A stretch of 64,000 nt of DNA from Candidatus Omnitrophota bacterium (GTDB taxonomy: Bacteria; Omnitrophota; Gorgyraeia; Gygaellales; Profunditerraquicolaceae): NCBI GenBank assembly GCA_028712175.1, contig JAQTQQ010000001.1, forward strand, positions 96,992-160,991, given 5' to 3'. Numbering within the stretch: position 1 is the stretch's first letter; the number at the start of each line of letters is the position of its first letter. Positions 33,203 to 64,000 of this stretch are shown piece by piece. A model generated the notes under the pieces. The model was given only the letters and a program-made list of their open reading frames with translations, was not told the DNA's origin and ran no database searches. The translations under genes and the position numbers were made by a program.

Positions 33203-33205
33203 AAT

Positions 33206-34705: not shown

Positions 34706-34748
34706 CCCCGTCAGCTTTAAGTAAAAAGCGTTTCAAATTTGATTTAAG

Positions 34749-38688: not shown

Positions 38689-38696
38689 AGTTTTAT

Positions 38697-45821: not shown

Positions 45822-47414
45822 ATGAGAAAGTTATTTTTTGGCCTAATATGTATTGCTACTTTCATAATTACCCTGCCTTTTAAGGGTTATTCCATTGAAG
45901 ATCTTGCAGAAGAGATGAGGCTTTATGTCGGACATCCACAAACGATTTCCATAAATTCTCCAAAAAGAGTCGCAGTTGGAAATCCTCTGGTGGCCGATGT
46001 CGTTAATATCAGTAAAACCGAACTGTCAATTGACCCCAAGGCGGCAGGAAGCACGACGCTGATCATTTGGGATAATTTCGGCGAGCAATCTTATCGCCTG
46101 AATGTATTTACCGAAGATATGAGCATTATTAAGCGGCGCGTCGATAACATGCTTTCTTCATTAAATCTACCGGGAGTTTATACCAAAGCAGAGGATGAAG
46201 AGGCTAAGGTGTTGCTTTTAGGGACCGTTAAATCCGCAAAAGATAAAGGCAGAATTACTGCCGCTTTGGATCAGATAAAGGATAAAATAATAGACCTGGT
46301 TATGGTAAAAGAAGAAGAGTCGCTTATAGAGATCGATGTTCAGGTTATTGAGATTAATAAAGGTTCCCAGGATGTTTTGGGTTTTACCTGGCCCGGTTCA
46401 GTGAATTTAACCGAAGTCGGTTCCCCCGGGATTCAAGCCGCAGGTACTACATGGGGTAAGTTATTTAAGGTAGCTAATGAAACCCGCGCCGCTTTTACTT
46501 TAAAATTAGATGCCTTAATACAGGAAGGCAAAGCGCGTATTCTTTCTCGTCCGCGAGTCTCCTGTCAGAGCGGTAAAGAAGCTAAACTTGTCGTCGGAGG
46601 AGAGGTCCCGGTTTTAAGCGGGACAGTAAGCCCCGGAGGAACTACGGGTACCCCCGGCGCGACTACGAGCGGCTCAGTTGAATATAAAGAATATGGTATT
46701 ATTTTGAATGTTAAACCACTGCTTGAAGATAACGGACGTATTCATCTCGGACTTGATGTTACAGTCAGTGAAGTCGGTGATCAAGTGCAGACGGATTATG
46801 CCTTGGCATATAGAATGACTAAGCGTACGGCTACAACCGAACTTTTACTTGATGATGGGCAGACTATGGCCATAGGCGGTTTAATTAAACAGAAGAAATC
46901 GGAGGATGTAAGAAGAGTGCCGTGGCTTTCCAATATCCCAGTTGTGGGTGCAATATTTAAGCAGAGGACTAAGGCTTCCGGGTGGGATTCAGATCTTAGC
47001 GAAATCAATGATATTGAGCTTTTTATTACATTGACTCCGCGCGTGGTCAGCCAGATAAAACCGCAGGAGGAATCAAGGCCTAAGATTGCCAAAATTACTG
47101 CTCCAAACTATGATAATATCAAGGATCCGGTTTTGAGGTATTCAAAACTGGTGCAGCAAAAAGTTCTAAATGCGCTTGTTTATCCTCCGGCCGCAAAGGC
47201 CGCCGGATTTCAGGGAACCGTGAAACTAAGCCTTAAGCTTTCGCCGCAAGGTGAACTTTTGGAATCGAAATTAAAGGAAACTTCAAGTTACCGGGTGCTG
47301 GATGATGCTGCGCTCCAAAAAGCCCAAGACACTTCCCCTTATCCGCCTTTTCCTCCTGACATAAAGGAGCAAGAAATTTGGGTGGATATTCCTATAACTT
47401 ATCAATTGGAATAA
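45822..47414 (+). CDS. cpaC: Tad/type II secretin (CpaC/RcpA-like) fused to C-terminal TonB_C domain
   Basis: Secretin core 'LLDDGQTMAIGGLIKQKKSEDVRRVPWLSNIPVVGAIFK'. The C-terminal ~90 aa 'VLNALVYPPAAKAAGFQGTVKLSLKLSPQGELLES...WVDIPITYQL' is a TonB C-terminal fold signature. Confidence 0.7.
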   Translation: MRKLFFGLICIATFIITLPFKGYSIEDLAEEMRLYVGHPQTISINSPKRVAVGNPLVADVVNISKTELSIDPKAAGSTTLIIWDNFGEQSYRLNVFTEDMSIIKRRVDNMLSSLNLPGVYTKAEDEEAKVLLLGTVKSAKDKGRITAALDQIKDKIIDLVMVKEEESLIEIDVQVIEINKGSQDVLGFTWPGSVNLTEVGSPGIQAAGTTWGKLFKVANETRAAFTLKLDALIQEGKARILSRPRVSCQSGKEAKLVVGGEVPVLSGTVSPGGTTGTPGATTSGSVEYKEYGIILNVKPLLEDNGRIHLGLDVTVSEVGDQVQTDYALAYRMTKRTATTELLLDDGQTMAIGGLIKQKKSEDVRRVPWLSNIPVVGAIFKQRTKASGWDSDLSEINDIELFITLTPRVVSQIKPQEESRPKIAKITAPNYDNIKDPVLRYSKLVQQKVLNALVYPPAAKAAGFQGTVKLSLKLSPQGELLESKLKETSSYRVLDDAALQKAQDTSPYPPFPPDIKEQEIWVDIPITYQLE

Positions 47415-47415
47415 G

Positions 47416-49575
47416 ATGGCAAAAATAATAGTAATATTTAGCACAAAAGGCGGTGTCGGAAAAACGCTTATTGCTGCTAATTTAGCCGTATCTTTGACCA
47501 GAGAAGGCAAGCGCGTCTGTGTAGTAGATTTAGATACGCAGGTAGTAGGAGATATGGCGCATATGCTGGGTTTGAGCCCGCAGAAGTGTATAGCGGACTT
47601 GATGAGTTTTATGAGCAAGCAGCCCCAGTTGACTAAGAAGCAAGATTTTATAATTCAAACCAAATTTAATAATGTAGATTTCCTCGCCGGCGTACTTAAG
47701 CCGCAGCAATCCGGGTATCTCTACGCGGAAAAACTCCCCGAAATATTTGCCTTCTTAGATAAAGACTATGATTATATTGTTGTGGATGTGGGCAAGAGTT
47801 TTAGCGATATATTTCTTGCTGCATTAAGCCAGGCTAACCTCATACTTTTGGTCGCTACCCCGGATGTGCTTTCCGTGTATCAAACTAAGTGGGCTTTAGA
47901 TACTTTACTGTTTCTGCATTTTCCCCTGAATATGATTAAGCTTGTGCTTAACAGGGCGGAATCCTTATCCAGTATCAGTTGGCAGGAGATTAGGGTAAAT
48001 CTTCCCGTGGATATAATTGCCAAGGTCCCTTCTGAAGGCAAGTTGGTTAATCAGGCGGTTAATCTTGGTGTGCCCATAGCTATTAATGCCCCTCGCTCTA
48101 AGATCGCCTTAGTTCTATCTGAGCTTGCAGCCCTTTTAATCGAAGGTAAGGCGCTTTATATGGAACGCAAGAATATCGATCAGATCAAGATTAAAGAGGT
48201 GGCACTTGAGAAATCCGGGCAGTTCTGGGAGTCTCAGGATTTAAAAGAATCCGTGCTTGAGCCTGATAGTTCAGAAGATAAAGACGAGATATTGATACTC
48301 AAGCGCCGAATACACAGCCGCCTTTTGGATAGCATGAACATAAAGAGGTTGGACCTTAAAATATTCAGCGACCGCAAAAAAGCCAGGGATCTAAAAGAAA
48401 GGGCGGGAGTTATTGTAAGCAATCTTTTAGTGGAGGAGGCAGGGAGCTTTATTCCTTCCCAGGAAATAAGAAGAAAGCTGATCAAAGAAATCCTGGATGA
48501 AGCTTTGGGCCTTGGGCCTTTAGAGGATTTATTGGCAGACCCGGATATTACCGATATCATGGTTAATAATAAAGATGAAATTTATGTTGAGCGGTTTGGA
48601 CTAATCGAGCTTACCAGCAAGAAATTCATTTCTAATGATCAGGTCCGCACGATAATCGAACGCATTATCGCTCCTATCGGAAGGCGTATTGATGAATCCG
48701 TGCCTATGGTTGATGCCCGTCTTGGCGACGGATCGCGCGTCAACGCAATTATATCTCCTGTATCGTTAACCGGGCCGACTTTAACTATCAGAAAATTCCG
48801 CAAAGAAAGATACAAAACAAATGATTTGCTTAATTTAGGCGCCTTAACTCAGGGGATATCCGATTTTATTAGGGCTTGTGTGTTGTGCCGCAAAAATATG
48901 ATTGTTTCCGGTGGCACAGGTTCAGGAAAAACCACGATGTTAAACGCGCTTTCAGAATATATTCCTGAAGGAGAAAGGATTATAACCTTAGAGGATGCCG
49001 CGGAATTGAAATTGAACCAAAGGCACTGGATAAGGTTGGAATCTCGTCCTCCGAATATAGAAGGTAAAGGCAGTCTTATGATCAGGGACCTTTTCCGTAA
49101 TACCCTGCGTATGCGCCCGGATAGAATTATCGTCGGAGAATGCCGCGGTACCGAATCTTTAGATATGCTTCAAGCCATGAATACCGGGCATGACGGCTCT
49201 ATGACCACCGTTCACGCAAATTCTACCACGGATGTTTTATCCCGGCTTGATTCGATGATTCTTATGTCCGGAATTGAGCTTCCTGCCAGGGCTATACGTG
49301 AGATGGTTGCTTCCGCAGTTGATATAATTGTGCACACCGCAAGGCTTTCCGACGGTTCGCGAAAAATTATGTCCATCGCGGAAATATCAGGGATGAAAGA
49401 TGAGATGCATATAAATTTAAACGAAGTATTCATTTTTAAGCAAACCGGAGTAGATCCTAAAGGCAAGGTTCAGGGGTATTTTACTGCTACCGGTTATAAG
49501 CCTTCATTTTTGGATGAAATCCGCGTGCGCGGAATATCCCTTTCAGAAGATATATTTATACCCACCAAGCCGTAA
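47416..49575 (+). CDS. fused CpaE/TadZ-like ParA-family ATPase + CpaF/TadA secretion ATPase
   Basis: N-terminal deviant Walker A 'FSTKGGVGKT' (MinD/ParA-like CpaE). C-terminal 'GGTGSGKTT', Asp box, and 'MNTGHDGSMTTVHAN' (TadA/VirB11-like hexameric ATPase). Confidence 0.8.
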   Translation: MAKIIVIFSTKGGVGKTLIAANLAVSLTREGKRVCVVDLDTQVVGDMAHMLGLSPQKCIADLMSFMSKQPQLTKKQDFIIQTKFNNVDFLAGVLKPQQSGYLYAEKLPEIFAFLDKDYDYIVVDVGKSFSDIFLAALSQANLILLVATPDVLSVYQTKWALDTLLFLHFPLNMIKLVLNRAESLSSISWQEIRVNLPVDIIAKVPSEGKLVNQAVNLGVPIAINAPRSKIALVLSELAALLIEGKALYMERKNIDQIKIKEVALEKSGQFWESQDLKESVLEPDSSEDKDEILILKRRIHSRLLDSMNIKRLDLKIFSDRKKARDLKERAGVIVSNLLVEEAGSFIPSQEIRRKLIKEILDEALGLGPLEDLLADPDITDIMVNNKDEIYVERFGLIELTSKKFISNDQVRTIIERIIAPIGRRIDESVPMVDARLGDGSRVNAIISPVSLTGPTLTIRKFRKERYKTNDLLNLGALTQGISDFIRACVLCRKNMIVSGGTGSGKTTMLNALSEYIPEGERIITLEDAAELKLNQRHWIRLESRPPNIEGKGSLMIRDLFRNTLRMRPDRIIVGECRGTESLDMLQAMNTGHDGSMTTVHANSTTDVLSRLDSMILMSGIELPARAIREMVASAVDIIVHTARLSDGSRKIMSIAEISGMKDEMHINLNEVFIFKQTGVDPKGKVQGYFTATGYKPSFLDEIRVRGISLSEDIFIPTKP

Positions 49576-50016: not shown

Positions 50017-52155
50017 ATGGGGGTAGTTCATAAACTCAAGCCCGAAGTTATTAAGTTTATTGTTGAGAACAAGCAGAATGATCCTTCCTTGAGCTGCCGT
50101 GCTTTAACGCAGCTAGTTTTCGATAAACTTCAAATCAAGCTTTCAAAATCAAGCGCCAACGCTATTATTAAGGAAAATAATTTGAGCATGCCTATTGGCA
50201 GAAGGCAAAAGCATAAAAAAAAGAAATTCAATATGCCTATTTTACCGGTTATTGAAGGAACTAAAGCAATCACCTTGGTTGCTGGGGAGGGAAAAGTGAA
50301 AGCGGAGAGTGCTTCCGAGGAGAAACGGATTAAAGAAGCAGAGGAATGGGCTATGAAATTACAGATCGATGAAAGGGCTAAAGCTGAAGAAAGATTGAGG
50401 CTGCAAAAACAAAAATCTGAAAATGAAGATATCAAGAAGAAGGCTGAAGAAGCAGAATTAAGGTTTCTTATGGAAGAAGCTGCTAAGCTTAATGCGCAAA
50501 AGGAAGCTGAAAAACTTGCAGAAGCAAAAGCCGCCGAGGAAGTTCAGCGAAAAGCAGAGCAGGAAAGGCTGGCTAAGCTTGCCGCCGAGGAAGCTGAAAA
50601 ACTTGCAAAAGCGAAAGCCGCCGAGGAAGTTCAGCGAAAAGCAGAGCAGGAAAGGCTGGCAAATGTTTCCGAAGATGACGCCAGAGAACCTGATGAAGAG
50701 AATGCTGCTCAGGAAGCAGCGTTAAGAGCTGAAAAAGAAAGATGGGCCAGGCTCGCGGAGGAAGAGCTTAAGGCTAGGCAGAAACAGGAAAAAGAAGAAG
50801 TGGTTTTAAAGAAAGAGGATTTTGCTCCTTCTGGCCAATTCAGCCAGAATAAGCTTTGTTCAGGTTTAATATTTTTTAAAGCGCTCGATTGTTTAATGGG
50901 ATGCAGTAAAGAAATTAATGCGGCAATTTGTAAAGAGTTGGGCCAGCCCCCGGATGATTTTTTAAATCTTACGGAGACGTTAATATTCAGGTCTTTATTC
51001 GATAATGATAATATCCCCGAGTTTTGGGGCCTAATCGCTAAGCCATACCCCCGGGAAAAACTTGATAATTATTCTGCGCAAGTCCGGCAAATTAAGAATA
51101 TACAACCGGATATTGTAAAAATTATCTCTGCTGCTTTTACCGAAGCCCGGGGGGCAAAAGTGCATCTTGCCGACGGAGATATTATTAATTTGGACGGACA
51201 ATTACATTCTACATGGCCTACCAAGAATATCCCGTATGATTTTTCAAGCTCTATATATGAACTGAAGAACAACTTAAACAAATATTTTACCCTTGGCCAG
51301 CCTTTAGTTTTATTTTCTGCCGGAGGCTATGATATACCTTCAAAAGATTTCTTTGGCCTGCTTTTAAATGGCAGTTCAGCAGGTAAATGCCCGGCCAACG
51401 TAACTTTGTTCGGCAATAACTTAGAGGAGCTCCAAAGCATGCCCTTAAATGATAGAAAAAAATTATCACTAATTTTTGGGCTTTGGCCTTGGCAGTTTAC
51501 AAGCAGCAGGAAGGTAAAAAAGATCGGAGATTTTGAGTTAAAACACATAGAGGCGATAAATCAGGATCTGTACCTGGCGGAAGTCGAAATTGACCTTTTA
51601 CGGGCGGCTTTAAATCAATCTATAACTTTAAAAGGCTGTGCCGTAAAAACAGCTCAGGCTGAGAAGATTCGTATGGTCATACTTAGCAGTGATCCACAGC
51701 CGCTGGATTTGGCTCAACTGGCAGAGGCATATCTGGGGTGCTGGCCTAATTTTGAGGAGGCATTTCATGATTTTAGCCGTAAAATCGAGCTTTTTGCCTA
51801 TAATAACAACACGCAAAAGTTTTTTCCTAAAGACAGCTTTGAGGCTAAATTAATGGAGCCGGGCGTGGAATTGGAGAAGATCTTCGTAACTTATATTAAA
51901 ATGCTGGAAACTTATCTGCGCTGGCATTTTTTCCCGGCAGAGTATAGGGAAAAAGATAATCTTGCAACTAGCGACTTATTTTACGGCCTTCCGTTAAAGC
52001 TTGAAGTTGGGCAAAGCGGAGTAGTTGTTAAGGTTGAGGTGGCTAAAGAATACCAGTTTTTAAAGGATCTGGAATATCTTATCTGCCGCTTGAATGAAAG
52101 GCAGATAAGATTAACTAATAGCAGGCGCCTATGTTTTGAAAACGCTTTCAAATAG
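50017..52155 (+). CDS. large hypothetical protein: N-terminal basic/HTH-like region, ~250-aa charged coiled coil with tandem repeat, ~430-aa C-terminal domain
   Basis: Tandem KAEQERLAKLAAEEAEKLAKAKAAEEVQR repeats. It sits inside the tad locus between DUF192 and the pilin array. Confidence 0.45.
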   Translation: MGVVHKLKPEVIKFIVENKQNDPSLSCRALTQLVFDKLQIKLSKSSANAIIKENNLSMPIGRRQKHKKKKFNMPILPVIEGTKAITLVAGEGKVKAESASEEKRIKEAEEWAMKLQIDERAKAEERLRLQKQKSENEDIKKKAEEAELRFLMEEAAKLNAQKEAEKLAEAKAAEEVQRKAEQERLAKLAAEEAEKLAKAKAAEEVQRKAEQERLANVSEDDAREPDEENAAQEAALRAEKERWARLAEEELKARQKQEKEEVVLKKEDFAPSGQFSQNKLCSGLIFFKALDCLMGCSKEINAAICKELGQPPDDFLNLTETLIFRSLFDNDNIPEFWGLIAKPYPREKLDNYSAQVRQIKNIQPDIVKIISAAFTEARGAKVHLADGDIINLDGQLHSTWPTKNIPYDFSSSIYELKNNLNKYFTLGQPLVLFSAGGYDIPSKDFFGLLLNGSSAGKCPANVTLFGNNLEELQSMPLNDRKKLSLIFGLWPWQFTSSRKVKKIGDFELKHIEAINQDLYLAEVEIDLLRAALNQSITLKGCAVKTAQAEKIRMVILSSDPQPLDLAQLAEAYLGCWPNFEEAFHDFSRKIELFAYNNNTQKFFPKDSFEAKLMEPGVELEKIFVTYIKMLETYLRWHFFPAEYREKDNLATSDLFYGLPLKLEVGQSGVVVKVEVAKEYQFLKDLEYLICRLNERQIRLTNSRRLCFENAFK
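50503..50660 (+). repeat. two near-identical 71-bp direct repeats (period 87 bp) inside the coiled-coil gene
   Basis: 'gaagctgaaaaacttgca...gcagagcaggaaaggctggc' at 50503-50573 and at 50590-50660, differing by 2 nt. Confidence 0.7.
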
Positions 52156-52318: not shown

Positions 52319-52450
52319 ATGATTTTAAGGGCCGGATACATTAAAGGACAAAGCTTTCTGGAATATACCATGTTGGTTCTCGTCGTCACTGCGGCGCTTG
52401 TTGCGATGACTGTTTATATTCAGCGCGCGATGCATGCCTATGTGGGTTAG
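52319..52450 (+). CDS. flp: Flp-family pilin (43 aa), not in ORF track
   Basis: MILRAGYIKGQSFLEYTMLVLVVTAALVAMTVYIQRAMHAYVG carries the Flp prepilin motif G-QSFL-EY followed by a hydrophobic helix. Confidence 0.65.
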   Translation: MILRAGYIKGQSFLEYTMLVLVVTAALVAMTVYIQRAMHAYVG

Positions 52451-52495
52451 AGTATTTTTGATAATTGTTCCGGCAAGAAAAAGAGTTTTATTAAA

Positions 52496-52657
52496 ATGAT
52501 TTTAAGATCCGCAAAAGGGCAAAGTTTAATTGAATATGGGATATTGGTACTTATCGTCACTGCGGCGCTTATTGCGATGACTGTTTATTTGTACCGTTCA
52601 TCAAACGCCCGCGTTAGGCGCAGCATAGATGAATTAAATTATTACAGATCAGATTAA
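52496..52657 (+). CDS. flp: Flp-family pilin (53 aa), not in ORF track
   Basis: MILRSAKGQSLIEYGILVLIVTAALIAMTVYLYRSSNARVRRSIDELNYYRSD. Confidence 0.65.
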   Translation: MILRSAKGQSLIEYGILVLIVTAALIAMTVYLYRSSNARVRRSIDELNYYRSD

Positions 52658-52675
52658 CACTAGAAGGAGGGGAAG

Positions 52676-52843
52676 ATGAAAAAGTTCAGGAAGGGGCAGA
52701 GTACACTGGAGTATGTAATAATTTTGGCGGCGGTAGTGGGTGCGATTATTGCTGTGGGGATAATGCTTAAACCGAAGTTGATAAACTCATACGATAATTT
52801 ATCTACTACAATGCAAAATAAAGTAGGCGAAGTTACTTTTTAA
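52676..52843 (+). CDS. flp: Flp-family pilin (55 aa), not in ORF track
   Basis: MKKFRKGQSTLEYVIILAAVVGAIIAVGIMLKPKLINSYDNLSTTMQNKVGEVTF, with RBS GAAGGAGGGG upstream. Confidence 0.7.
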   Translation: MKKFRKGQSTLEYVIILAAVVGAIIAVGIMLKPKLINSYDNLSTTMQNKVGEVTF

Positions 52844-52855
52844 GGAGGTGAAAGA

Positions 52856-53185
52856 ATGTTAAGGCTATTGAGAAAAGGACAGAGCACAGCAGAGTACGCA
52901 ATTGTGATTGGTTTAGTTATTGCCGCGGCGGTGGCGATGCAGGTTTATGTGAAGCGCAGTATTCAGGGCAAAATGAAAGATGCCGTAGACACTAATGATC
53001 CTGCCGCAACATTTTTGGTAACCCAACAGTATGAACCGCTATATCAGACCACAACTAATATGACATCAACCAGAGACGGTACTGAAGTAGCCACGACTAA
53101 ACAGGGCGGAGGCGTAACCAGGCAAATTAGCGGGCAGGATATAAGCAGTAGAACAGGTAAAACAAATATTTCAGCAGCTAATTAG
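52856..53185 (+). CDS. Flp-like pilin with ~70-aa C-terminal extension (109 aa)
   Basis: 'LRKGQSTAEYAIVIGLVIAAAVAM', a Thr-rich tail, and RBS AAGGAGGTG. Confidence 0.6.
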   Translation: MLRLLRKGQSTAEYAIVIGLVIAAAVAMQVYVKRSIQGKMKDAVDTNDPAATFLVTQQYEPLYQTTTNMTSTRDGTEVATTKQGGGVTRQISGQDISSRTGKTNISAAN

Positions 53186-53222
53186 TAGGTTAAAGTAGCG
53201 ATAAGTTTATTTAAATCAGGAG

Positions 53223-53537
53223 GTGAATATGTTGCGCGCAAGATCAAGAGGGCAGACTACCCTTGAAGTAGTTATTTTGATCGGTTTTGTTGTAGCGGCG
53301 TTAATTGCTATGGGCGTGTATATGAAAAGAGGTATTCAGGGAAGGCTTAGGGATTCGACGGACCAGATCGGGGAACAATATTCTGCGGGGTATACTACCG
53401 GAACATATACGACAAAGACTGAAATGACCCAAGTTGAAAACATGAGTGCGGGTGGTGCTATTGAGACAAATATTACCCGTAATAGGCAGACAAAAACCGG
53501 TTCTGAAACCGTATCGGATTTTACTCCGGGGTACTAA
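53223..53537 (+). CDS. Flp-like pilin with C-terminal extension (104 aa)
   Basis: 'RSRGQTTLEVVILIGFVVAALIAM' with RBS AGGAGGTG. Confidence 0.55.
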   Translation: MNMLRARSRGQTTLEVVILIGFVVAALIAMGVYMKRGIQGRLRDSTDQIGEQYSAGYTTGTYTTKTEMTQVENMSAGGAIETNITRNRQTKTGSETVSDFTPGY

Positions 53538-54157
53538 TGAGGCGAGGGCAATCGACCCTAGATTATGTTTTTTTGATTGGAGTAGCGGCTGCTGGACTTA
53601 TTGTTATGCTAGTCTATGTCAGCCGCGGGCTTCAAGGGAGTGTGCGCGATAAAGCCGACCAGCTAAGCGCTTGGCAGTATGAACCGGGCAATACGACCAT
53701 ACATAACAGGCAGACTAAAATAGCAGATTCTGATTCTGAATCCGGCAGCAGTACTACTGTTACTTATGGTAATTTAAATGAACCGAATACAGCTTTAGAA
53801 GAAATATTAGAAGAGATTGAAGAAAAACAGAAAGAAATAATAGAGCTTAAAAAGGAGTGGGAAGAAACACTGGTTAAAGAAGCTAAAAGCGAAGCGAAAT
53901 CTGTCAGGGATGGCGATTTGGACTGGCCCGGCCCTCCTGAAGACGGAGAGTTCGCAATTGTAACCAAAGAGCTGCAGAAGGCAAACGAGGAATTAGGGGA
54001 ACTGCTTGAAGAGGCAGATTTATTGGAAGAAGCCTGGAAGAAAAGGAAAATTACTCCAGATGTTACAGGTGAAACGCATAGCTTTAGCAAGGAAGAAGGT
54101 ACAAAATCAGATTCTAAATGGCAAATTGATGAAGCTATAGGCACTTTGATAAAATGA
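53537..54157 (+). CDS. Flp-like pilin with long acidic coiled-coil tail (206 aa)
   Basis: 'MRRGQSTLDYVFLIGVAAAGLIVM', then a Ser/Thr stretch and 'EEILEEIEEKQKEIIELKKEWEE...LLEEADLLEEAWKK'. Confidence 0.5.
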   Translation: MRRGQSTLDYVFLIGVAAAGLIVMLVYVSRGLQGSVRDKADQLSAWQYEPGNTTIHNRQTKIADSDSESGSSTTVTYGNLNEPNTALEEILEEIEEKQKEIIELKKEWEETLVKEAKSEAKSVRDGDLDWPGPPEDGEFAIVTKELQKANEELGELLEEADLLEEAWKKRKITPDVTGETHSFSKEEGTKSDSKWQIDEAIGTLIK

Positions 54158-54447
54158 CATTACGCAGAGGGCAAAATTTAATAGATTTAGCCTTGCTTAT
54201 CGGCTTGGTGGGGCTGGTAGTTATCGGGATGGAAGTTTATGTCAGGCGCGGTGTGCAGGGCAAGATTAAAGATGTTACCGATTATATTACGGAAACCACG
54301 CGCCAGGCGGTAGAAGATCCTAAGATGGTCAGTTCAACCACGCTTAACTTAGATTCATCGATGGAGTATAAAGAGCTTACTAAGGGCGCAAGAAGTTTAA
54401 AGGGCAGGGAGGATTCGGTTTCTGTTTATAATCAGCGCAGCGAGTAG
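54154..54447 (+). CDS. Flp-like pilin with C-terminal extension (97 aa)
   Basis: 'LRRGQNLIDLALLIGLVGLVVIGM'. Confidence 0.5.
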   Translation: MTLRRGQNLIDLALLIGLVGLVVIGMEVYVRRGVQGKIKDVTDYITETTRQAVEDPKMVSSTTLNLDSSMEYKELTKGARSLKGREDSVSVYNQRSE

Positions 54448-54517: not shown

Positions 54518-55147
54518 ATGTTAAGAGACCGCAAAGCCCAAGCAGTTTTAGAATTAGCTATATTGGGCTCTTTGCTTATTATGGCGTTCTCTATCGCGAT
54601 AAAATACGGCGAACAGTATAACCGCGAGCAATCTTATATGCAGCAGACTTTCCGCGGTAATTTGAAGATGGCAAGAAAAGCCTTGGGCTCTACTTCCTAT
54701 GGGACCACGGATTTTCGCAGAAGTTCTAACATGATTGATCCTATGGAATTAGGGGAGTTACAGCAATTCGGCAGCTCTAATCAGGTGCTTTGGACGCATG
54801 GCAAAAAAGACCCGGCTACTGATGAGCCCTATGAGGCAAAAGGTTATTACCGGTTTAACCGGGGTGCAATACTTGAAGTTGCTTTGGGCCCAGCCCCATA
54901 CAATACATCTGTAACGCTTAGCTCCCATGTTACTACCTCTCCGCATAATGAAACCCGGTATTATAAAGACACAGAGGCGGGCCGTAGCAGCAGTACTAAA
55001 TGGATGGATGCCACAGATACTATTACTGCCAGTATGCCTTTTGCCGGCACAACTGTTTCGTTAAGTTCGGATCCATTCCACGATGAATTAGGCGAGGGTG
55101 GTTTTTATAAAAGCGGTGGTATAAAGCGTACAAAGACTTTAGAATGA
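54518..55147 (+). CDS. TadE-like pseudopilin
   Basis: 'RKAQAVLELAILGSLLIMAFSIAIKYGEQ' TadE-type N-terminus. 209 aa. Confidence 0.5.
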   Translation: MLRDRKAQAVLELAILGSLLIMAFSIAIKYGEQYNREQSYMQQTFRGNLKMARKALGSTSYGTTDFRRSSNMIDPMELGELQQFGSSNQVLWTHGKKDPATDEPYEAKGYYRFNRGAILEVALGPAPYNTSVTLSSHVTTSPHNETRYYKDTEAGRSSSTKWMDATDTITASMPFAGTTVSLSSDPFHDELGEGGFYKSGGIKRTKTLE

Positions 55148-55386
55148 TAAAGAAAGCCCAGGCAACATTAGAATTTTCTTTGGTTTTAATCATAGCTGTA
55201 GGCCTAATTGCGGGGTTTTATGTCATGGCCAGATGGGTAGCTGGGCATATCCCTAACCGCCAAGATTCATATGATCTTAGCCGGAAAGACGCAGGGCAGA
55301 AATCTTCTCCGGGCCAGCCTGAAAGAGTTTATGAAGCTTCAGTTTTTGCTGATTCGGCTGATTGGATCTATTTATTTAGAAAATAG
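55144..55386 (+). CDS. TadE/TadF-like pseudopilin (short)
   Basis: 'KKAQATLEFSLVLIIAVGLIAGFYVMARW'. Confidence 0.45.
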   Translation: MIKKAQATLEFSLVLIIAVGLIAGFYVMARWVAGHIPNRQDSYDLSRKDAGQKSSPGQPERVYEASVFADSADWIYLFRK

Positions 55387-55399: not shown

Positions 55400-56968
55400 T
55401 TGCCTTTGTGCCATCGTAATAAAAATATTCATTCCAAAGTAAGAAAAAAGCTCTCCGGACAGATTTTCCCTTTTTTACTCGTGGGCATAGTTGCTTTACT
55501 TGCCGTTGCCCTTTCTGCCCAAGGTATGTTTAGTTCTGCGAAAACCAGAACCTGCGCGGATAATGCCGCGGACGCCGGGTCTTTAGCTACTGCCTCCATT
55601 CTCGCCGGAGCTTTTAATGAATTATGCTTAAGGAATGAAGAAATGTGGGATTATTACGAGTTGGACCTAGAGTATTACCGGACCATGTACGCCTTGGCAG
55701 ATACTTATTTAACCGACGCAGATACCTTTAGCGTGGCTGCAAAAAATACAGCGTCAGCCGCATTACCCAATATTCGTGACGGAGGGTGCGAAACATGGAC
55801 CTGGCAGAAAGATGCTTCCCTGCAGAATTATAATCCCGACGGAGAAATTAATTCAGCTGCGGAATATGCCCTTGAGGCGGCAAAATGCGTCGGGGCTGTC
55901 GAAGTCCTTAATCTCTATATGCTGTTCCTTACGGATAATTATAAATATAATCAGACTGAAAATTATTGCCGCGCCCTTGATTTTATGAATTCAGTTTTTA
56001 CTATGAATGATTATTTTACAGACGCTAAGTCGGTAGGCTTAAAATATGCTTTTAATAACAGCTGTCAAGGCAGCGATGCCCTAAGTTTTTGGTTGGGAAC
56101 CGGCGGATTTAAAGACGGCACAACTTGGCCTCCCGGGGCCGATACCAGCCCGAACGGCTGCGGTATTACTGTTACCGTAGACTTACCGGCGTTAAAGTCT
56201 TTCGAGGTTGAGCATACTTTATGGAATTATCCCCATATAAAGACCCTTACTTATGCCGGTGTTACTTGTGACCCGGATCTTGAAATTCCAAGCTATTCTT
56301 TTCCAAATGATCCTTTTAACGTTGAAGGCGCATACCGTTTAAAAGAAATCTATAAGCTTTTTTATCTGGCTTTAAAAACAGCCGCAGCCAATGGCATGGT
56401 CATTTATAACTATACTGACGGTGCCCGCATGGTGCATGATACCTGCCATGATGAATTTGGTAATCCTTATAACTGCAATGAACATTGTAATAAGGAGGAG
56501 GATATTGCCACCGCGCGTTCTTTAGTGGAACCTTTGCGTTCATACCAATCATGCCTAATTAATGCATTAAATAATCTTAACTCTGGTGGCGGGGGAGTTT
56601 TATCGATCCATAATTTAAAGGAGCTCAATTTTGCTATTTATAATAATGTTTGGAAAAGCATATCGGCTTCATTGTTCTCAAGTAAAACCTGCGAGGATGT
56701 TAAAGTCCCCGGTGACCAAGACGAAGCTGGGCCTTGGCCGGGGCTGATGATTACCAAAATTGACGAGGTTAAGCTTACCTGGGCGGACTGGGTTACTAAT
56801 TGTACGGTAGTAGTATTTTGCAGGCATACAGATGAACGTACAGGCAGGGTTACTGTTAACAAGGTTACCGCTTTTAGCCAGGCTGAATTTAATGTCGATA
56901 ATCTCGGGGTATTGAGGACTTTTACAGATTTGTTTGATACACAAATTAAAGAAGCAAGAATATTTTAA
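55400..56968 (+). CDS. TadG-like pilus assembly/tip protein (Cys-rich, 522 aa)
   Basis: N-terminal 'GQIFPFLLVGIVALLAVALSAQGMF' Tad-like anchor followed by a large Cys-rich extracellular domain. Confidence 0.45.
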   Translation: MPLCHRNKNIHSKVRKKLSGQIFPFLLVGIVALLAVALSAQGMFSSAKTRTCADNAADAGSLATASILAGAFNELCLRNEEMWDYYELDLEYYRTMYALADTYLTDADTFSVAAKNTASAALPNIRDGGCETWTWQKDASLQNYNPDGEINSAAEYALEAAKCVGAVEVLNLYMLFLTDNYKYNQTENYCRALDFMNSVFTMNDYFTDAKSVGLKYAFNNSCQGSDALSFWLGTGGFKDGTTWPPGADTSPNGCGITVTVDLPALKSFEVEHTLWNYPHIKTLTYAGVTCDPDLEIPSYSFPNDPFNVEGAYRLKEIYKLFYLALKTAAANGMVIYNYTDGARMVHDTCHDEFGNPYNCNEHCNKEEDIATARSLVEPLRSYQSCLINALNNLNSGGGGVLSIHNLKELNFAIYNNVWKSISASLFSSKTCEDVKVPGDQDEAGPWPGLMITKIDEVKLTWADWVTNCTVVVFCRHTDERTGRVTVNKVTAFSQAEFNVDNLGVLRTFTDLFDTQIKEARIF

Positions 56969-57015: not shown

Positions 57016-57846
57016 GTGAGTATGATTTTTAAAATAAAAACCATATCCTCTGTGCTGTTTTTTGCAACATTTGGTCTTATCTCCGTTCTTTGCGCCTCTG
57101 ATTTAGGCGTACCCTTACCGAAAGACGCCGTAAAGATCCTGGAAAAAACCAGTAATTTTGGTCCGGTGAAATCATTTACGGAAGTTTATAAAACTTCTTT
57201 GAATAAAGCCAAGGTCATTTCGTTTTATAAGAAAGAGATGGCCAGGTCAGGATGGAAGCAAAAAGAGGAAGGGATTTTTATAAAAGATAAATTTATTGCA
57301 GTTGTTGTTTGCCGCTCCTCAAAGGACAAACAGGGCCAGGTAGAGTTTACAGTTACAATCAGCAATATCCCTTCCAAGGAAGAATTTTTGTTGATGCGCA
57401 AGGAGAAGCCTGATAAATTAAGTTATATGCCTATTTACCCGGGCAGCGTGCAGCTTTCTATTGTAAACCTGCCCGCAGGAATAGCCGGCGCTTATGAAAC
57501 AGAAAATAGCATCGAAGATGTTGTTTTTTTCTATAAAACTGGTATGCTAAATTATGGCTGGACCTTTGATAATGAGAAGTTTGTTCAGAGCAAGGATGAG
57601 CCCGTTGATTGCCCAAGTTGCCGGAAATTGCCCGGCTTCTTAAACGTCGCGAATAAGCCGAAAATAACCAGTAAAACAAGAAAAATTACCTTGATTTTCC
57701 GTAGAAAGAAATCAGAAACTTGCGTAATTACCGTAACCGAAGTTTCATCGCAACAGGGCAAAACCGCTAAAACGAAGATTACGGATTCACCGAGGAAAAC
57801 CACTATTCTCACTAGCTATCATGCGTATAAAAGTAACAGGCCATAA
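57016..57846 (+). CDS. secreted hypothetical protein in tad locus
   Basis: Signal peptide 'MSMIFKIKTISSVLFFATFGLISVLCASD'. Confidence 0.4.
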   Translation: MSMIFKIKTISSVLFFATFGLISVLCASDLGVPLPKDAVKILEKTSNFGPVKSFTEVYKTSLNKAKVISFYKKEMARSGWKQKEEGIFIKDKFIAVVVCRSSKDKQGQVEFTVTISNIPSKEEFLLMRKEKPDKLSYMPIYPGSVQLSIVNLPAGIAGAYETENSIEDVVFFYKTGMLNYGWTFDNEKFVQSKDEPVDCPSCRKLPGFLNVANKPKITSKTRKITLIFRRKKSETCVITVTEVSSQQGKTAKTKITDSPRKTTILTSYHAYKSNRP

Positions 57847-57997
57847 GGCCCAATCGACAATAGAATATATTGCGGTAATCATCGTGATTATTGCCGTTTT
57901 TATCTTTGCCGGAGTTTATTATCAGCGTAGCCTGCAGGGTAAGTACCGTCAGGCAGGCGATGCTATCGGCGGTGGCGAACAGTACACTCCTCGTTAA
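57821..57997 (+). CDS. flp: Flp-family pilin (58 aa), not in ORF track
   Basis: MRIKVTGHKAQSTIEYIAVIIVIIAVFIFAGVYYQRSLQGKYRQAGDAIGGGEQYTPR. It overlaps the 3' end of the upstream gene. Confidence 0.55.
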   Translation: MRIKVTGHKAQSTIEYIAVIIVIIAVFIFAGVYYQRSLQGKYRQAGDAIGGGEQYTPR

Positions 57998-58013: not shown

Positions 58014-58859
58014 ATGATTATCTTGCTTAATATCCTTCTTTTATGTTCAGTTATCCTGCTCTCTTTCAGCCTTTTGCCTGTTATTATGCAGAAGATTCAG
58101 TCCTGGCAGCAGAAGAAAGAGGCTGTATTTGCTAAAGAAATGGATAAGATGTTCTATGACAAAAGCCCTAAAAGCATTGTTATGCTCTATTTTATCCTTC
58201 CCTTGATTTTTGGCCCAGCTGGTTATTTTCTTACACAATCCCATATCGTTATGATTATCGGTGCGTTTATTGGCGTAGCTATCCCTAATTTTATTTTAAA
58301 GGCCCGCTATAAAACCAGGATCCGCAAGTTCAATGACCAGCTTTTGGACGCCATTAATATGCTTTCCAGCTGTATAAAAGGGGGTTTAAGCCTTTTGCAG
58401 GGGCTAGAAGTGCTGGTTGAGGAGATGCCTGCGCCAATGAGCCAGGAGCTGGGTTTGGTGGTTAGGGAGAATAGAATGGGCATTCCGTTAGAAGAGTGCC
58501 TGAACCGCTTGGATAAACGTATGGCTCTTGATGAGCTTAGTTTGGTGGTTAATGCCCTTATGGTTGCCCGCGAAACAGGCGGTGAACTGCCTAAAGTTTT
58601 TAGCCGCCTAACCGTTACGATTAGAGATAATCGCAAATTAAGGGAGAGTATCAAGACACTTACTTTGCAGGGTAGAATGCAGGGCGTAATTATGTCATTT
58701 TTGCCGATTGTATTTGTGGCTTGGGTCCTCTCGGTGAATAAGCATCATTTTGATATTATGCTCACCGATGATTTTGGCAGGATGCTTTTAATTATAGCAG
58801 TGATACTGCAGGCTGTCGGCATGCTGTTGATTAAAATATTTAGTACAATCGAAATATAA
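58014..58859 (+). CDS. tadB: Flp pilus assembly protein TadB (T2SS-F domain)
   Basis: Polytopic protein with a T2SSF-like cytoplasmic domain 'LLDAINMLSSCIKGGLSLLQGLEV'. Confidence 0.7.
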   Translation: MIILLNILLLCSVILLSFSLLPVIMQKIQSWQQKKEAVFAKEMDKMFYDKSPKSIVMLYFILPLIFGPAGYFLTQSHIVMIIGAFIGVAIPNFILKARYKTRIRKFNDQLLDAINMLSSCIKGGLSLLQGLEVLVEEMPAPMSQELGLVVRENRMGIPLEECLNRLDKRMALDELSLVVNALMVARETGGELPKVFSRLTVTIRDNRKLRESIKTLTLQGRMQGVIMSFLPIVFVAWVLSVNKHHFDIMLTDDFGRMLLIIAVILQAVGMLLIKIFSTIEI

Positions 58860-58860
58860 T

Positions 58861-59715
58861 ATGGAAATAGCTATATACGGTTTTGCCATTGGTTCAATTA
58901 TCCTGGTACTCTGGGGGATTGTTTTTACGCAAGCCAGTTCGCTTTCGCGTATCCCCAAGGATGCTACAGACGTTAAATTCCAAAAACCAAAATTTGATTT
59001 TGCTGATCTTTTCCCGACTGGGGCATTTTTGGAAAAGTCCGGTATGGCAAGTAGCCTTAAGAAGTCCCTGGATACTGCGCATATCAATATGTCTCCCGGC
59101 GCATTTTTTAACCTAAAGCTGCTTTTATGCGGTTTACTGGTGGTTCTGGTAATATCATTGACCGGTACAGTCAATCCCCTAATAGTAATAATTTTTATTA
59201 TACTAGGGTATATTATCCCGGATTTTTATTTAAAACGTAAAGTTGCCAGGCGTAAATACCTTATTGCGCGCAGGCTTCCGGAAACAGTAGACCTTTTGGG
59301 TCTGTGTATAGAAGCAGGGCTAGATTTTGTAAATGCCGTGAAATGGGTAATTGACAGGACTCCTCATACCCCGATGACCGAGGAACTTGCTTTTGTTGTT
59401 GAAGAGATAAAATGGGGTAAACCGCGTATCCAGGCGTTAAAAGATATGTCGCGGAGGCTGGAGATATCCGAGATAACCTCTTTTGTTCAGACGATTATCC
59501 AAGCAGAACGCATGGGTACTCCGGTAGCTGAGGCATTTGCTATACTTTCCGAAGATGCACGTGCTCAAAGGTTTCACCGCGGCGAGAGGACCGCTTTACA
59601 GGCGCCTATCAAAATCCTCCTGCCTCTCATTTTCTTTATTATGCCAGTAATTGGTATTATTGTCGGTGGCCCCATATTGCTTACTTTTATGAAAGGCGGC
59701 CTTACCGGTTTCTAA
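58861..59715 (+). CDS. tadC: Flp pilus assembly protein TadC (T2SS-F domain)
   Basis: 'LPETVDLLGLCIEAGLDFVNAVKWV' T2SSF motif. It is a paralog of the preceding gene. Confidence 0.7.
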   Translation: MEIAIYGFAIGSIILVLWGIVFTQASSLSRIPKDATDVKFQKPKFDFADLFPTGAFLEKSGMASSLKKSLDTAHINMSPGAFFNLKLLLCGLLVVLVISLTGTVNPLIVIIFIILGYIIPDFYLKRKVARRKYLIARRLPETVDLLGLCIEAGLDFVNAVKWVIDRTPHTPMTEELAFVVEEIKWGKPRIQALKDMSRRLEISEITSFVQTIIQAERMGTPVAEAFAILSEDARAQRFHRGERTALQAPIKILLPLIFFIMPVIGIIVGGPILLTFMKGGLTGF

Positions 59716-59776: not shown

Positions 59777-59845
59777 TCTTTAACGTCCTATTTTGATTTT
59801 TTGGGATTTTAAGGTGCAATGTTTTCCTATTAATAACAAAATTAT

Positions 59846-61192: not shown

Positions 61193-64000
61193 ATGAATAT
61201 ACAAGAGCAACAGACAGAAGCCAGGATTGAGCAACCAAAAAAAGAGTTCAAGTCAAATTTTAAGACTTGGATTCGCGTGGTTGCTTTTATTCTTTTAGCT
61301 GTCTTTTTGCCAGAACAGGTTGCCCAAGCTGCTGAATATGACTGGAGCGTTATTTGGAATAAGCCTGCTGCAGGCAGTATCGCTCCCAGGTACCTCAAGG
61401 ATATTAACAATATTGATACTGCTTTAACTATCCGTAACATTCTTAAAGATATAGCCAATAAACCAATAAACGCAATCAAGGTTTCGTCCAATCTGACTAT
61501 AAATCTAGATAAGCCTTTGAGAATGTCCAATCAGAGAATTAATGAAATTACTGAGTGGCTAAAAGGAAGGCCTTGCGGATCAAAAGCTCTTTATGACTAT
61601 TTGAACCATTCCGGGGTTAAAGCTGCTGAAGGGGATATCGCAATTATGGCTTTAACTGTTGATATCCTCAATGATGTGGTCAGACCGGAAGGTAGGCCTG
61701 AAGTCATTAAAAGCTCTTTGTATGCCCTTTCTGAAGCAGCTAAATTTTTCAAAGTCAATTTATTTCCGGTTAAGGTTGATTCTAGCATTGATCTTTCCAG
61801 CCTCACCCCATTTATCGCGCATTTTAAAAATGAACATTATGTTTTAGTTACGCGCGTAAGCGAAGATAAGATTTATTATAATCAGGATCACCGTGAGGAA
61901 TTTTTACCAAAAGATACATTTTTAGCCAAGTTTAGCGGTTATGCTTTAACTAATATATTACCGGCAAATCTGAAAGTTTTATCCCCGGCTGAAAGCAAAA
62001 AGATCTTGGGCGCCAGGTTAGATGATGGATCCGGAAGATATCCATCGCGTACTCCTTCTGCTCCGCCACCCACTACTCGCACTAATAGCTGGGTTAGTTA
62101 TCTGCCTTCCAGGCAGACCTATGGCCCGCAAACCTCTGTCAGGCAGGTAACAACTGTTCGGCCGACCACTATGGATACTTCATCAGGCGCGGGGGCTTGG
62201 GTTCCACCGGCAGGATCAGGTTCAGGGGTCACTATACAGTTCCGTACACCTGCAGGCAACGCACCGGTGAATTATACTTTTACATACGGTGGCGTAGTCC
62301 AGAGAGATGCTAATGACAGGCTTTACGTAAATGGCACGGATAGATTTGGTAAGGCTTTCCAGCTCTATCTCTCTGATGCGTCCAGAAGATCAGGTTCGGT
62401 TGTTGCAGGGCAGGATTTGGGCCAAACACAGGTTCGTGTTGTAGATACTTCTAGGAGGTTTGGAGAGGATCCGGGGACGGTTTTGGATTATCAAATTAGA
62501 AGCGTTGAAACAGGGAAATGGGTTCCTTTGCCCAGTTCCCATTCGATTTCTGAATTAATTGGGAACCGTACCCCCGGAGCACACGCTGAGACTGTGCGTA
62601 ATATTAATCCTACCGGAACATTGGGGTATAGTGACAGGCTATATGCGACTCTTATTAGCGGTACTTCCAGCAGCGGCTATTCAAACAGGGCACCTTTTCT
62701 TCTTACCGTCTTTCCGAATTTTAATGCCAGTTCCAACACTTTAAGTCTTGGATTAAGTTCATACTTTATTCCCGGGCAATTTTACGTCAATCGATCATCA
62801 GGAAGCCCTGCCCGTGTTATAGACAGGGCAATAAATAACAACGTATTGATAAAGCATATTCCTCAAGCACAGATGTATCAGGCTGCCAGAGAAATTAACT
62901 CCAGATTAGCAGCTTCCGGATCGCAGGCATATTGGGCCGTTCATTCTTCATATAACAATATGGGAGCAAGTATTTCTATTGCGGCTTCGCCTACCTTATC
63001 CATGGCATCGTTCCAGAGCTTACAGCCTTCTTCGCTCCAGGATTTACAGCCTATACTTTATGTGGTTCAGACAAATCAGCGCGGTATAGTGCCATCATAT
63101 ACAGGTTTTGCCGATTTACGCCAAGTGCCTTCTTTAACGAAAATTATGGAGCCAGCTGTTATTTTAGACGGCAACCAACAGCTCTTAGGCTATACCGGCC
63201 CCGATAAACTTATGTACTCTGCTACTATAAATGGACATGGTTTAGGATTGGTTTCGCCATTCGTCAATTTGGATTGGTCTGAGCGCGGTGGCTTACAGCC
63301 GGTATTTGAAAATGCCCGCTTTAGTGTCGTCGGAGATGCTTTAAACCCCGCAGGCTTCGGCACCTTAAGGGTGGGCGTAGACTTGACACAGGTTGATTTA
63401 ACAAAAAGCCCTACCCAGTTTCATGTCGGGTTAAGTTCAAACACCATAACCGGTTTTATCCCGGATTTTGCTCCGGATGAGGCATCTTTAAGGAATGTGC
63501 CTGTTGCCTTAAATATGTATTCAGGCTTAGAGACTTCGGGTATGTTGAGTACTGATCTTAACAGCCAAGGAACCCGTTACTGGAAAGTTGAGGATACCAG
63601 AATTACCGGATTTTCCAATATACGTTCCTGGTCAGGGATAATAGATTTAGCCCAGTGGTCGCTTGAGCCTAAACAAACGGAGCTGACCTTAAATATGCAA
63701 AATGTCCATTTGGTAGCCGGGCCAAAAGGTTCCAATCTGCCATTTGCTAAAGATGTCTTCATGCCTGCGAATGTGGCCATCTACGCTACTCCTACACAAT
63801 CGCATTTTGAGCGCTACGGAAGCGCAAATTATATTGGTTTAGCCGGCGGCGCGCAAATGAGCTTTACTACCAATGCTTCAAGCCTGGACCTTCTTAATGT
63901 AAATATTACTTTAAATAATACTTTAAGCGGGCAAGAACATACTTTTAACGGAATGGGCCAGGCGTGGCACCAAGTTTCTCTTGCAAACCTCTCAACTCCC
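61193..64000 (+). CDS. large membrane-anchored/secreted protein with C39-like papain-fold cysteine peptidase domain, Pro/Thr linker and large beta-rich domain (3' end outside window)
   Basis: I translated the + frame by hand from ATG 61193 to the window end (>935 codons) without meeting a stop. N-terminal 25 aa, then TM 'WIRVVAFILLAVFLPEQVAQA', a Cys motif 'GRPCGSKALYDYL', and a His motif 'NEHYVLVT'. It is absent from the ORF track because it has no in-window stop. Confidence 0.7.
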   Translation, partial: MNIQEQQTEARIEQPKKEFKSNFKTWIRVVAFILLAVFLPEQVAQAAEYDWSVIWNKPAAGSIAPRYLKDINNIDTALTIRNILKDIANKPINAIKVSSNLTINLDKPLRMSNQRINEITEWLKGRPCGSKALYDYLNHSGVKAAEGDIAIMALTVDILNDVVRPEGRPEVIKSSLYALSEAAKFFKVNLFPVKVDSSIDLSSLTPFIAHFKNEHYVLVTRVSEDKIYYNQDHREEFLPKDTFLAKFSGYALTNILPANLKVLSPAESKKILGARLDDGSGRYPSRTPSAPPPTTRTNSWVSYLPSRQTYGPQTSVRQVTTVRPTTMDTSSGAGAWVPPAGSGSGVTIQFRTPAGNAPVNYTFTYGGVVQRDANDRLYVNGTDRFGKAFQLYLSDASRRSGSVVAGQDLGQTQVRVVDTSRRFGEDPGTVLDYQIRSVETGKWVPLPSSHSISELIGNRTPGAHAETVRNINPTGTLGYSDRLYATLISGTSSSGYSNRAPFLLTVFPNFNASSNTLSLGLSSYFIPGQFYVNRSSGSPARVIDRAINNNVLIKHIPQAQMYQAAREINSRLAASGSQAYWAVHSSYNNMGASISIAASPTLSMASFQSLQPSSLQDLQPILYVVQTNQRGIVPSYTGFADLRQVPSLTKIMEPAVILDGNQQLLGYTGPDKLMYSATINGHGLGLVSPFVNLDWSERGGLQPVFENARFSVVGDALNPAGFGTLRVGVDLTQVDLTKSPTQFHVGLSSNTITGFIPDFAPDEASLRNVPVALNMYSGLETSGMLSTDLNSQGTRYWKVEDTRITGFSNIRSWSGIIDLAQWSLEPKQTELTLNMQNVHLVAGPKGSNLPFAKDVFMPANVAIYATPTQSHFERYGSANYIGLAGGAQMSFTTNASSLDLLNVNITLNNTLSGQEHTFNGMGQAWHQVSLANLSTP

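Follow-up and report, generated by a model that had tools for sequence, protein, structure and literature searches.

A conserved, ordered array of ten prepilin-like genes within a Tad-type gene cluster of an Omnitrophota bacterium

Omnitrophota are widespread, uncultured and mostly ultra-small bacteria that are thought to live as predators or parasites. We analyzed a stretch of 64,000 nucleotides (64 kb, hereafter the window) from a Candidatus Omnitrophota bacterium, in which an array of prepilin-like genes lies inside a gene cluster of the Tad type, the kind that encodes type IVc pili. A motif scan of the window identified 10 open reading frames (ORFs) with a prepilin motif, all on the plus strand between 52.3 and 58.0 kb, and none elsewhere in the window. 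Shuffled versions of the window (n = 60) contained 0–1 such ORFs each, so the array lies beyond what chance would produce.

We named the genes after the groups (A to J) to which the ORFs were assigned, using several reference sequences per group. The first three genes, all on the plus strand like the rest of the array, are small: B′ (52319..52450, 43 amino acids (aa)) is a short copy of B that carries the motif and has orthologs; B (52496..52657, 53 aa) ends in a tail of the form RSxNARxxxxxDELNYYR; and C (52676..52843, 55 aa) is a Flp-sized prepilin-like gene and a candidate abundant subunit. They are followed by four genes for putative pilins of larger size, namely D (52856..53185, 109 aa), with an N-terminal helix, a Y-x-K-R-x-x-Q-G motif and a Thr/Ser-rich tail; E (53229..53537, 102 aa), which is always located 3′ of D; F (53537..54157, 206 aa), a pilin module with an inserted acidic helical hairpin; and G (54154..54447, 97 aa), whose start overlaps the stop codon of F (ATGA). 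H (54518..55147, 209 aa) and I (55144..55386, 80 aa) carry K-A-Q-A-V-L-E-L and K-A-Q-A-T-L-E-F, respectively, each with a hydrophobic helix, and resemble a TadE-like minor pilin and a TadF-like small minor pilin. The last gene, J (57821..57997, 58 aa), encodes a putative pilin consisting only of the helix and a Y-Y-x-R-S-L-Q-G...G-G-E-Q-Y-T-P motif. The start of E is most likely the ATG at 53229, because the alternative GTG at 53223, which would give 104 aa, sits within the gene's own Shine-Dalgarno sequence.

A preliminary description of this DNA had listed eight of these genes as prepilin-like proteins of a Tad-type locus, a number well above the usual 1–3 flp genes. All eight are present on the plus strand where it placed them, but the count was too low, since it lacked H and I as well as a TadG-like gene of 522 aa at 55400 that also belongs to the set. 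The progressive lengthening of the tails that it noted holds only roughly, as the first seven products measure 43, 53, 55, 109, 102, 206 and 97 aa.

The N-termini follow one pattern. In the eight ORFs listed earlier, a basic leader of 4–10 residues and a G or A are followed by Q-[STN]-x-x-[ED]-[YVL] and by a hydrophobic stretch of about 20 residues. In 10 out of 10 window proteins a small residue (G, A or S) at position −1 follows a short positive leader, and all ten have E or D at +5, with at least 15 of the next 16 residues hydrophobic or small; the Gln at +1 is invariant in the array proteins. The E-Y of the G/XXXXEY processing motif occupies +5/+6 in 5 of the 10 proteins, F has D-Y, and the other four have E-V, D-L, E-L and E-F. 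Among 499 distinct ORFs of the family, position −1 is G in 73%, A in 26% and S in 1% (the −1 class being part of the search pattern), and position −2 is K or R in 85%; across the family, Y is found at +6 in 78%. Cleavage at this site would give mature products of 33–48 aa for B′, B, C and J, in the Flp-like range, and of 91–202 aa for D, E, F and G, above the Flp range of about 40–60 aa and with tails that are non-helical in low-confidence models.

In order to follow the array in relatives, we scanned metagenomes with the 109-aa D protein as the query and retrieved 79 loci with 53–80% identity. In the loci long enough to judge (about 20 contigs), the motif-bearing ORFs lie on one strand and in a fixed order, canonically A, B, C, D, E, F, G, H, I, the TadG-like gene, a 276-aa gene, J, TadB and TadC, with 8–17 motif-bearing genes per locus. 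In a second sub-lineage, B, C, D and E are followed by four other groups, K, L, M and N. The window contains B′, B, C, D, E, F, G, H, I and J, without A. Lengths are characteristic of each group: C is nearly always 55 aa, D is 101–125 aa, E is almost always 100–113 aa and J is 55–75 aa, the exception being F, with 98–433 aa. The window C, D and E proteins are identical to proteins of Candidatus Omnitrophica metagenome-assembled genomes (MAGs), and the closest relatives of the TadZ-TadA protein encoded upstream come from Omnitrophota MAGs (55% and 50% identity). Compared with four relatives, all ten window genes show non-synonymous divergence far below synonymous divergence; dN/dS is about 0.06–0.43 in most comparisons with unsaturated dS, with an outlier of 0.76 for I. 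An origin of the array as a recent lineage-specific expansion, or swarm, was rejected, given that its orthologous groups are fixed and stand in the same order in about 20 contigs.

The smallest ORFs (52319, 52496 and 57821) might be suspected to be chance ORFs or decaying duplicates. They lack Shine-Dalgarno sites, and 52319 resembles a truncated copy of 52496; moreover, standard gene callers overlook four array genes, and the public gene caller made no call for these three ORFs on the identical contig. We nevertheless regard this explanation as very improbable. Orthologs of the same length are found at the same position in relatives, including B′ orthologs of 42 aa in loci L083 and L117 and J in 15 loci. 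Against L083, B′ shows a pN of 0.205 versus a pS of 0.473 and B a dN/dS of 0.07, and J has dN/dS values of 0.12–0.23 and a tail that is among the most conserved segments (70% identity among loci). Because of these same-position orthologs and of pN values far below pS, the short ORFs are, on comparative grounds, real genes; the preliminary description had proposed such a check, and both the 43-aa and the 58-aa ORFs are conserved. For the same reasons (conserved 42-aa orthologs, pN < pS), a pseudogene status of the first gene was rejected.

Copy number varies mainly for C (1–4 copies) and D-E (1–3 copies), and D-E duplications are almost always pairwise, the copies being paired in L127, L155, L159 and L161. 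Such differences between genomes, together with the many tandem paralogs and their divergent C-terminal tails, would fit interchangeable alternative major pilins serving antigenic or phase variation. The data make this scarcely credible: the genes have one-to-one orthologs at the same position in relatives down to 53% identity of D, all of them are under purifying selection, lengths and motifs are specific to each group, and the groups differ consistently in their translation signals. The region showed neither silent or truncated cassettes nor repeats suited to inversion or recombination, although no search aimed at repeats was made there. The fixed orthologous groups therefore argue for specialised subunits rather than for antigenic variation; of the two kinds of diversification considered in the preliminary description, the functional one is supported by the fixed groups and by purifying selection, whereas the antigenic one is not. 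Fixed groups, kept order, purifying selection and constrained length in all groups except F together suggest distinct structural roles, such as those of major and minor pilins.

The translation signals hint at how such roles may be distributed. Each gene had been described as having its own ribosome-binding site, which does not hold: in the window, strong GGAGG sites are found only at 52676, 52856 and 53229 (C, D and E) and a moderate one at 54518 (H), 54154 and 55144 lack a Shine-Dalgarno site like the three smallest ORFs discussed above, and 53537, 54154 and 55144 overlap the stop codon of the preceding gene. Across loci, the median Shine-Dalgarno duplex energy is −12.7 kcal/mol for C, −15.4 kcal/mol for D and −13.4 kcal/mol for E, with at least 95% of the copies strong, and groups A, B, F, G, I, J, L and M have Shine-Dalgarno sites that are weak or starts that are translationally coupled. 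The N-terminal helices of C, D and E are 84–94% identical among 10 loci versus 51–72% for the other groups, the first 25 mature residues of D reaching 94%, and C, D and E are the groups amplified beyond two copies. Because they combine the strongest Shine-Dalgarno sites with the most conserved helices and an amplified copy number, we infer that C and the D-E pair make up the bulk of the filament, the other groups being minor pilins. Promoter and terminator consensus scans of 51.9–58.1 kb gave counts equal to the shuffle expectation, and RNA folds of the intergenic regions had z-scores of −1.2 to +1.5; this interval therefore offers no evidence of a major pilin gene set apart by an internal promoter, an attenuator or a stabilising hairpin.

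We placed the array proteins among curated families. The best match is the archaeal-type Pfam family PF04021 (Class_IIIsignal), whose gathering score of 23.7 bits is reached only by C (24.4 bits); three other window proteins score 13.6–20.3 bits, below this threshold, and 20 of 74 family members reach E ≤ 0.01. B has weak matches to Class_IIIsignal (E = 0.0011) and to Flp_Fap (E = 0.026), and I one to Class_IIIsignal (E = 0.068). The threshold of Pfam PF04964 (Flp_Fap, 32.2 bits) is never reached, the best window score being 14.8 bits (E = 0.026), and E ≤ 0.01 is attained by 6 of 74 family members (best 2.2e-4). The proteins were thus rejected as Flp pilins in the strict Pfam sense, and the name Flp, used in the preliminary description, is too specific. 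NCBIfam gave no meaningful match, including none to a Flp model (the match to XpsH, E = 0.094, is at chance level). Pfam PF07811 (TadE) does not match window H and I even at E ≤ 10, and window H is without any Pfam match; weak TadE matches (E ≤ 0.01) occur in 3 of 74 family members, the group of which was not recorded. The assignment of H and I as TadE/TadF-like is consequently a tentative one based on position, which is conserved in relatives, on size and on the N-terminal motif.

Profile-profile comparison was used to relate the groups to one another. D, E and short F proteins are homologous over their full length (D versus E, hhalign 99.6%), whereas G, M and J share only the head, i.e., the N-terminal helix and the Y-x-K-R-G-x-Q-G...D..G.Q-Y-E-P motif, J aligning with the head of E. 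C and A form a separate subgroup, and H and I are marginally related to the other groups, which fits TadE/F-like proteins. Strong matches to a profile of the head motif are confined to Omnitrophota loci, with weak ones in 4 of 79 TadZ-TadA loci of other phyla. Among 1.84 billion cluster representatives (50%-identity clusters), the D/E profile matches 4,671 at E ≤ 0.001 and 1,775 at E ≤ 1e-10, and group C has 234 homolog clusters, nearly all of exactly 55 aa. Pfam and NCBIfam cover none of the D/E/F/G type, and the D/E-type pilins of about 100 aa thus appear, from these profile matches, to be a large family that lacks a description in curated libraries. In a profile search of PDB sequences, the best match was the N-terminus of geopilin (E = 0.3).

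The AlphaFold2 (AF2) model of E predicts a helix (residues 11–49) and a long beta-hairpin (56–95) with a predicted local distance difference test (pLDDT) score of about 55. For F, AF2 predicts an N-terminal helix (7–45), two short strands and an antiparallel helical hairpin, whose helices (85–124 and 138–168) have pLDDT values of 85–94. In alignments the hairpin is an insertion between conserved flanks (upstream, S-S-T-T-V-x-Y-G-N-x-N-E-P; downstream, T-P-D-x-T...E-x-G-T...E-x-L-G-x-L), and among orthologs it ranges from absent to about 300 residues. Passenger domains, which the preliminary description had considered for the pilins with long tails, may therefore apply to F alone. A Foldseek search of the PDB with the F model returned only generic helical hairpins (E ≥ 0.88); the pilin bodies of the E and F models are too uncertain for fold matches to be informative.

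The array is embedded in an operon-like cluster that links it to an ATPase, a platform and a secretin and that is kept in about 20 loci. On the plus strand, a peptidyl-prolyl isomerase (PPIase) gene from 43914 is the first gene of the cluster and is followed by genes encoding RcpC/CpaB (from 44858; Pfam RcpC, 1.4e-20), a secretin with a CpaC/RcpA-type N-domain, T2SS-T3SS_pil_N (45822–47414; Pfam Secretin, 6.9e-39), a TadZ-TadA fusion ATPase of 719 aa (47416–49575; Pfam ParA/AAA_31 and T2SSE), a DUF192 protein (from 49588; Pfam) and a 712-aa protein without a Pfam match (50017–52155), directly 5′ of the pilin array. Within and after the array, also on the plus strand, lie the TadG-like gene (55400..56968), a conserved gene encoding a 276-aa protein with an N-terminal signal or lipoprotein-like sequence (57016..57846), and genes for TadB-like and TadC-like platform proteins (58014..59715, with starts at 58014 and 58861; Pfam T2SSF in both). 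The 522-aa TadG-like protein, whose position is conserved, has an N-terminal membrane helix followed by a NAADAGSLA motif, and its residues 20–65 match positions 1–45 of the 47 of PF13400 ('Tad') weakly (E = 0.097; 13.4 bits, threshold 22.3). As judged by homology, the machinery thus has the components that define a Tad (type IVc) system: a TadA ATPase, TadZ, a split TadB/TadC platform, an RcpA secretin and RcpC.

Several proteins of the cluster have features of their own. The 712-aa protein has an N-terminal helix-turn-helix-like segment, long KAEEA or Lys-Glu-rich repeats and a conserved C-terminal domain, and in relatives it is always directly upstream of the pilin array (35–60% identity). 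The secretin carries a C-terminal TonB_C domain (residues 451–529), an unusual fusion for a secretin of the RcpA/CpaC type. Full-length homologs of the fused TadZ-TadA (35–45% identity) are found in Bdellovibrionales, Actinomycetota, Bacillota, Acidobacteriota, Chloroflexota and others, and on this evidence the fusion is not peculiar to Omnitrophota. An unrelated TadZ-TadA locus (L048, 716–3043) has six tandem Flp-sized prepilin genes (52–66 aa) and one of 130 aa, so large tandem pilin arrays occur in at least one other lineage.

Downstream of the platform genes, an ORF on the plus strand (61193..64000, open at the window end) encodes 935 aa or more, including a signal anchor and a Peptidase_C39 domain (residues 175–253); homology identifies it as the beginning of an Omnitrophota giant ('Archaeovorin'-type) gene. 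Homologs of this N-terminus (53–75% identity) are located 3′ of TadC in 14 related loci, and synteny in relatives spans the interval from the PPIase gene through the giant-gene N-terminus. Between TadC and the giant gene lies an IS200-like Y1 transposase gene (59793–60614, plus strand), with homologs (33–52% identity) at the same intergenic position, on either strand, in L087, L106, L122, L126, L127 and L131, and elsewhere in L141. The gene seems to have been resident for a long time (RAYT-like?) and not to have been inserted recently. The literature also reports PilZ genes 3′ of giant genes.

The position of the cluster directly 5′ of the giant gene, in the window and in 14 related loci, raises another interpretation, namely that the array encodes pseudopilins of a type II secretion-like device, in which a short periplasmic pseudopilus of one or several major and numerous minor subunits would push the giant protein or other cargo through the secretin and no long external pilus would be made. 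In line with this, West-Roberts et al. characterise the cluster as a type II/IV-like secretion system preceding the giant genes (bioRxiv 10.1101/2023.11.21.568195), the many minor subunits with weak translation signals recall GspH-K, and the TonB_C domain of the secretin is unusual. However, the machinery is of the Tad type, with RcpC, TadZ, two TadB/C-like half-platforms and a secretin N-domain like that of CpaC/RcpA; no GspC, GspL or GspM homologs were detected, and neither these nor GspG-K gave Pfam or NCBIfam matches in the pilins or in adjoining proteins. The giant proteins bring a signal anchor of their own and are reported in the literature to contain SecA-like modules, and the Tad systems studied to date produce pili (PMC12075869; bioRxiv 10.64898/2026.07.08.737194). 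Weighing these points, we consider a secretion pseudopilus rather unlikely.

Our preferred interpretation, which we hold to be reasonably probable, is that the ten genes encode the specialised subunit set of one Tad-type (type IVc-like) filament of this Omnitrophota bacterium. Cleavage after the G or A that precedes the invariant Gln would be carried out by a prepilin peptidase whose gene lies in another part of the genome, and the mature pilins would be incorporated into the filament by way of their hydrophobic N-terminal helices. The single TadZ-TadA ATPase, acting on the TadB/TadC platform, would power assembly, and the filament would leave via the RcpC-secretin channel. In the proposed stoichiometry, C (55 aa) and the D+E pair (about 100 aa each, with a helix and a Thr/Ser-rich beta tail) would be the abundant structural subunits and B′, B, F, G and J low-abundance minor pilins, F exposing its lineage-variable acidic helical hairpin; H, I and the TadG-like protein may form a priming or tip complex of the TadE/F/G type. 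Such a filament most likely serves host or prey contact, because, in these ultra-small and putatively predatory or parasitic bacteria, the cluster always precedes a gene for a giant surface protein.

Several points weigh against this proposal. The evidence fits an extended pilus and a short pseudopilus alike, and Shine-Dalgarno strength is a mere proxy for abundance. Three co-abundant subunits would be unusual, since known Tad shafts are homopolymers of a pilin of about 45–60 aa. Searches for the G-x-G-D-x-K motif and for multi-pass membrane ORFs revealed no prepilin peptidase in the window or in the flanks of the relatives. The curated Pfam and NCBIfam thresholds place no array protein in Flp_Fap or TadE, and the models of the E and F pilin bodies are of low confidence (pLDDT 50–65), which makes the beta tail tentative. 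We also considered a further-reaching version, which appears quite unlikely to us, in which the filament differs from every described Tad pilus in being a heteropolymer: C and obligate D-E heterodimers would make up its shaft, with the Thr/Ser-rich beta tails as an outer sheath, and it would be coupled to the giant protein (as a display scaffold, docking site or export device) in host attachment.

Other genes of the window flank the cluster. Directly 5′ of it, at 41688–43508 (plus strand), is a gene for a 606-aa protein with seven transmembrane segments (7-TM) and E-E-x-x-F-R and His motifs recalling intramembrane proteases of the CPBP type; it is also found in L126 and, although not of a known prepilin peptidase type, its position is suggestive. 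Divergent from the adjoining Tad cluster, the minus strand at 37753–41396 encodes a FIST-domain protein, a GAF histidine kinase and a response regulator-GGDEF protein, a possible cyclic di-GMP (c-di-GMP) regulatory input. Farther upstream (25755–37622, plus strand), an ABC transporter gene, a gene for a 1261-aa radical-SAM/B12-binding protein and three radical-SAM/SPASM genes are followed by four glycosyltransferase genes, possibly a glycan or peptide modification cluster.

The Tad-like cluster beside the giant genes is the main candidate for a host-contact machine of the Omnitrophota, and it encodes a fixed, ordered set of at least 10 different pilin-like subunits, three of which (C, D and E) bear signals of high expression and one of which (F) bears a lineage-variable helical insert. 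This would extend the finding, made in Myxococcus, that predatory Tad pili have large minor-pilin repertoires (PMC12075869). The array also provides concrete targets for proteomics, for cryo-electron microscopy and for structure prediction of complexes.

The locus itself has already been described. Tad complexes in Omnitrophota were noted by Seymour et al. in 2023 (PMC10066038), and the small class III signal peptide genes received one sentence in earlier Omnitrophota papers (bioRxiv 10.1101/2023.11.21.568195; PMC10066038). In their accessible text, these papers do not report the order of the groups, the pairing of D with E, the variability of the insertion in F, the gradation of translation signals or the size of the uncurated family.

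Among known systems, the Flp/Tad pili (Aggregatibacter tad, Caulobacter cpa and Pseudomonas flp-tad-rcp) share with this cluster RcpC/CpaB, the RcpA/CpaC secretin, TadZ, TadA, TadB and TadC. Both also have a motif of the G/XXXXEY type, the Omnitrophota counterparts of the small helical pilins being the Flp-sized B, C and J, and both have larger TadE/F/G-like proteins, here H, I and the 522-aa protein. In contrast to canonical Tad loci with about 3–5 prepilin genes, the Omnitrophota loci have 8–17; their pilin leaders are short (4–10 aa), with the invariant Gln at +1, and the class of about 100 aa formed by D, E, F and G (Y-x-K-R-G-x-Q-G...Q-Y-E-P, with a tail predicted to be of beta type) lacks a canonical counterpart. 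The Omnitrophota locus also differs in having TadZ fused to TadA and no TadV, its pilins miss the Flp_Fap and TadE thresholds, and half of them exceed the size of Flp-type pilins. The tad loci of Bdellovibrio likewise have a TadZA fusion and no TadV, Flp1 being processed by PilD, an unlinked peptidase (bioRxiv 10.64898/2026.07.08.737194).

The archaeal class III signal peptide pilins (PF04021/UPF0333; Epd-type) have in common with the array proteins a short basic leader, G, A or S at −1, Gln at +1 and Glu at +5, as well as several different small pilin genes per locus, and NCBI and JGI label some members of the array family 'class III signal peptide-containing protein' or 'UPF0333'. The Omnitrophota host is bacterial, however, with an outer-membrane secretin, RcpC and TadZ. 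A likeness to GspG-K of type II secretion is seen in the combination of what may be one or a few abundant and several minor subunits, encoded in tandem in a machinery operon, and in a secretin machine adjoining a presumed exported protein, whereas the Omnitrophota locus has a split platform of the TadB/TadC type, RcpC and TadZ, with neither GspC/L/M nor homology to GspG-K.

The Kil predation pilus of Myxococcus xanthus consists of the major pilin KilP and 14 minor pilins in four tips, with KilK and KilO as adapters; among its minor pilins are adapters of Flp size and trimeric tips resembling TadE/F/G (PMC12075869). Like the Omnitrophota cluster, it is a predator-associated Tad system with an expanded pilin set, a small pilin gene adjoining the platform genes and a prepilin peptidase that is not dedicated or not linked. 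The Kil pilins are encoded in several scattered loci as four paralogous tip sets, in contrast to the one ordered array of different groups in Omnitrophota; the Kil pilus lacks counterparts of the D-E pair and the F hairpin, and outside the N-terminal helix no detectable sequence relationship could be established. By analogy, the Kil pilus is the closest functional precedent for the array.

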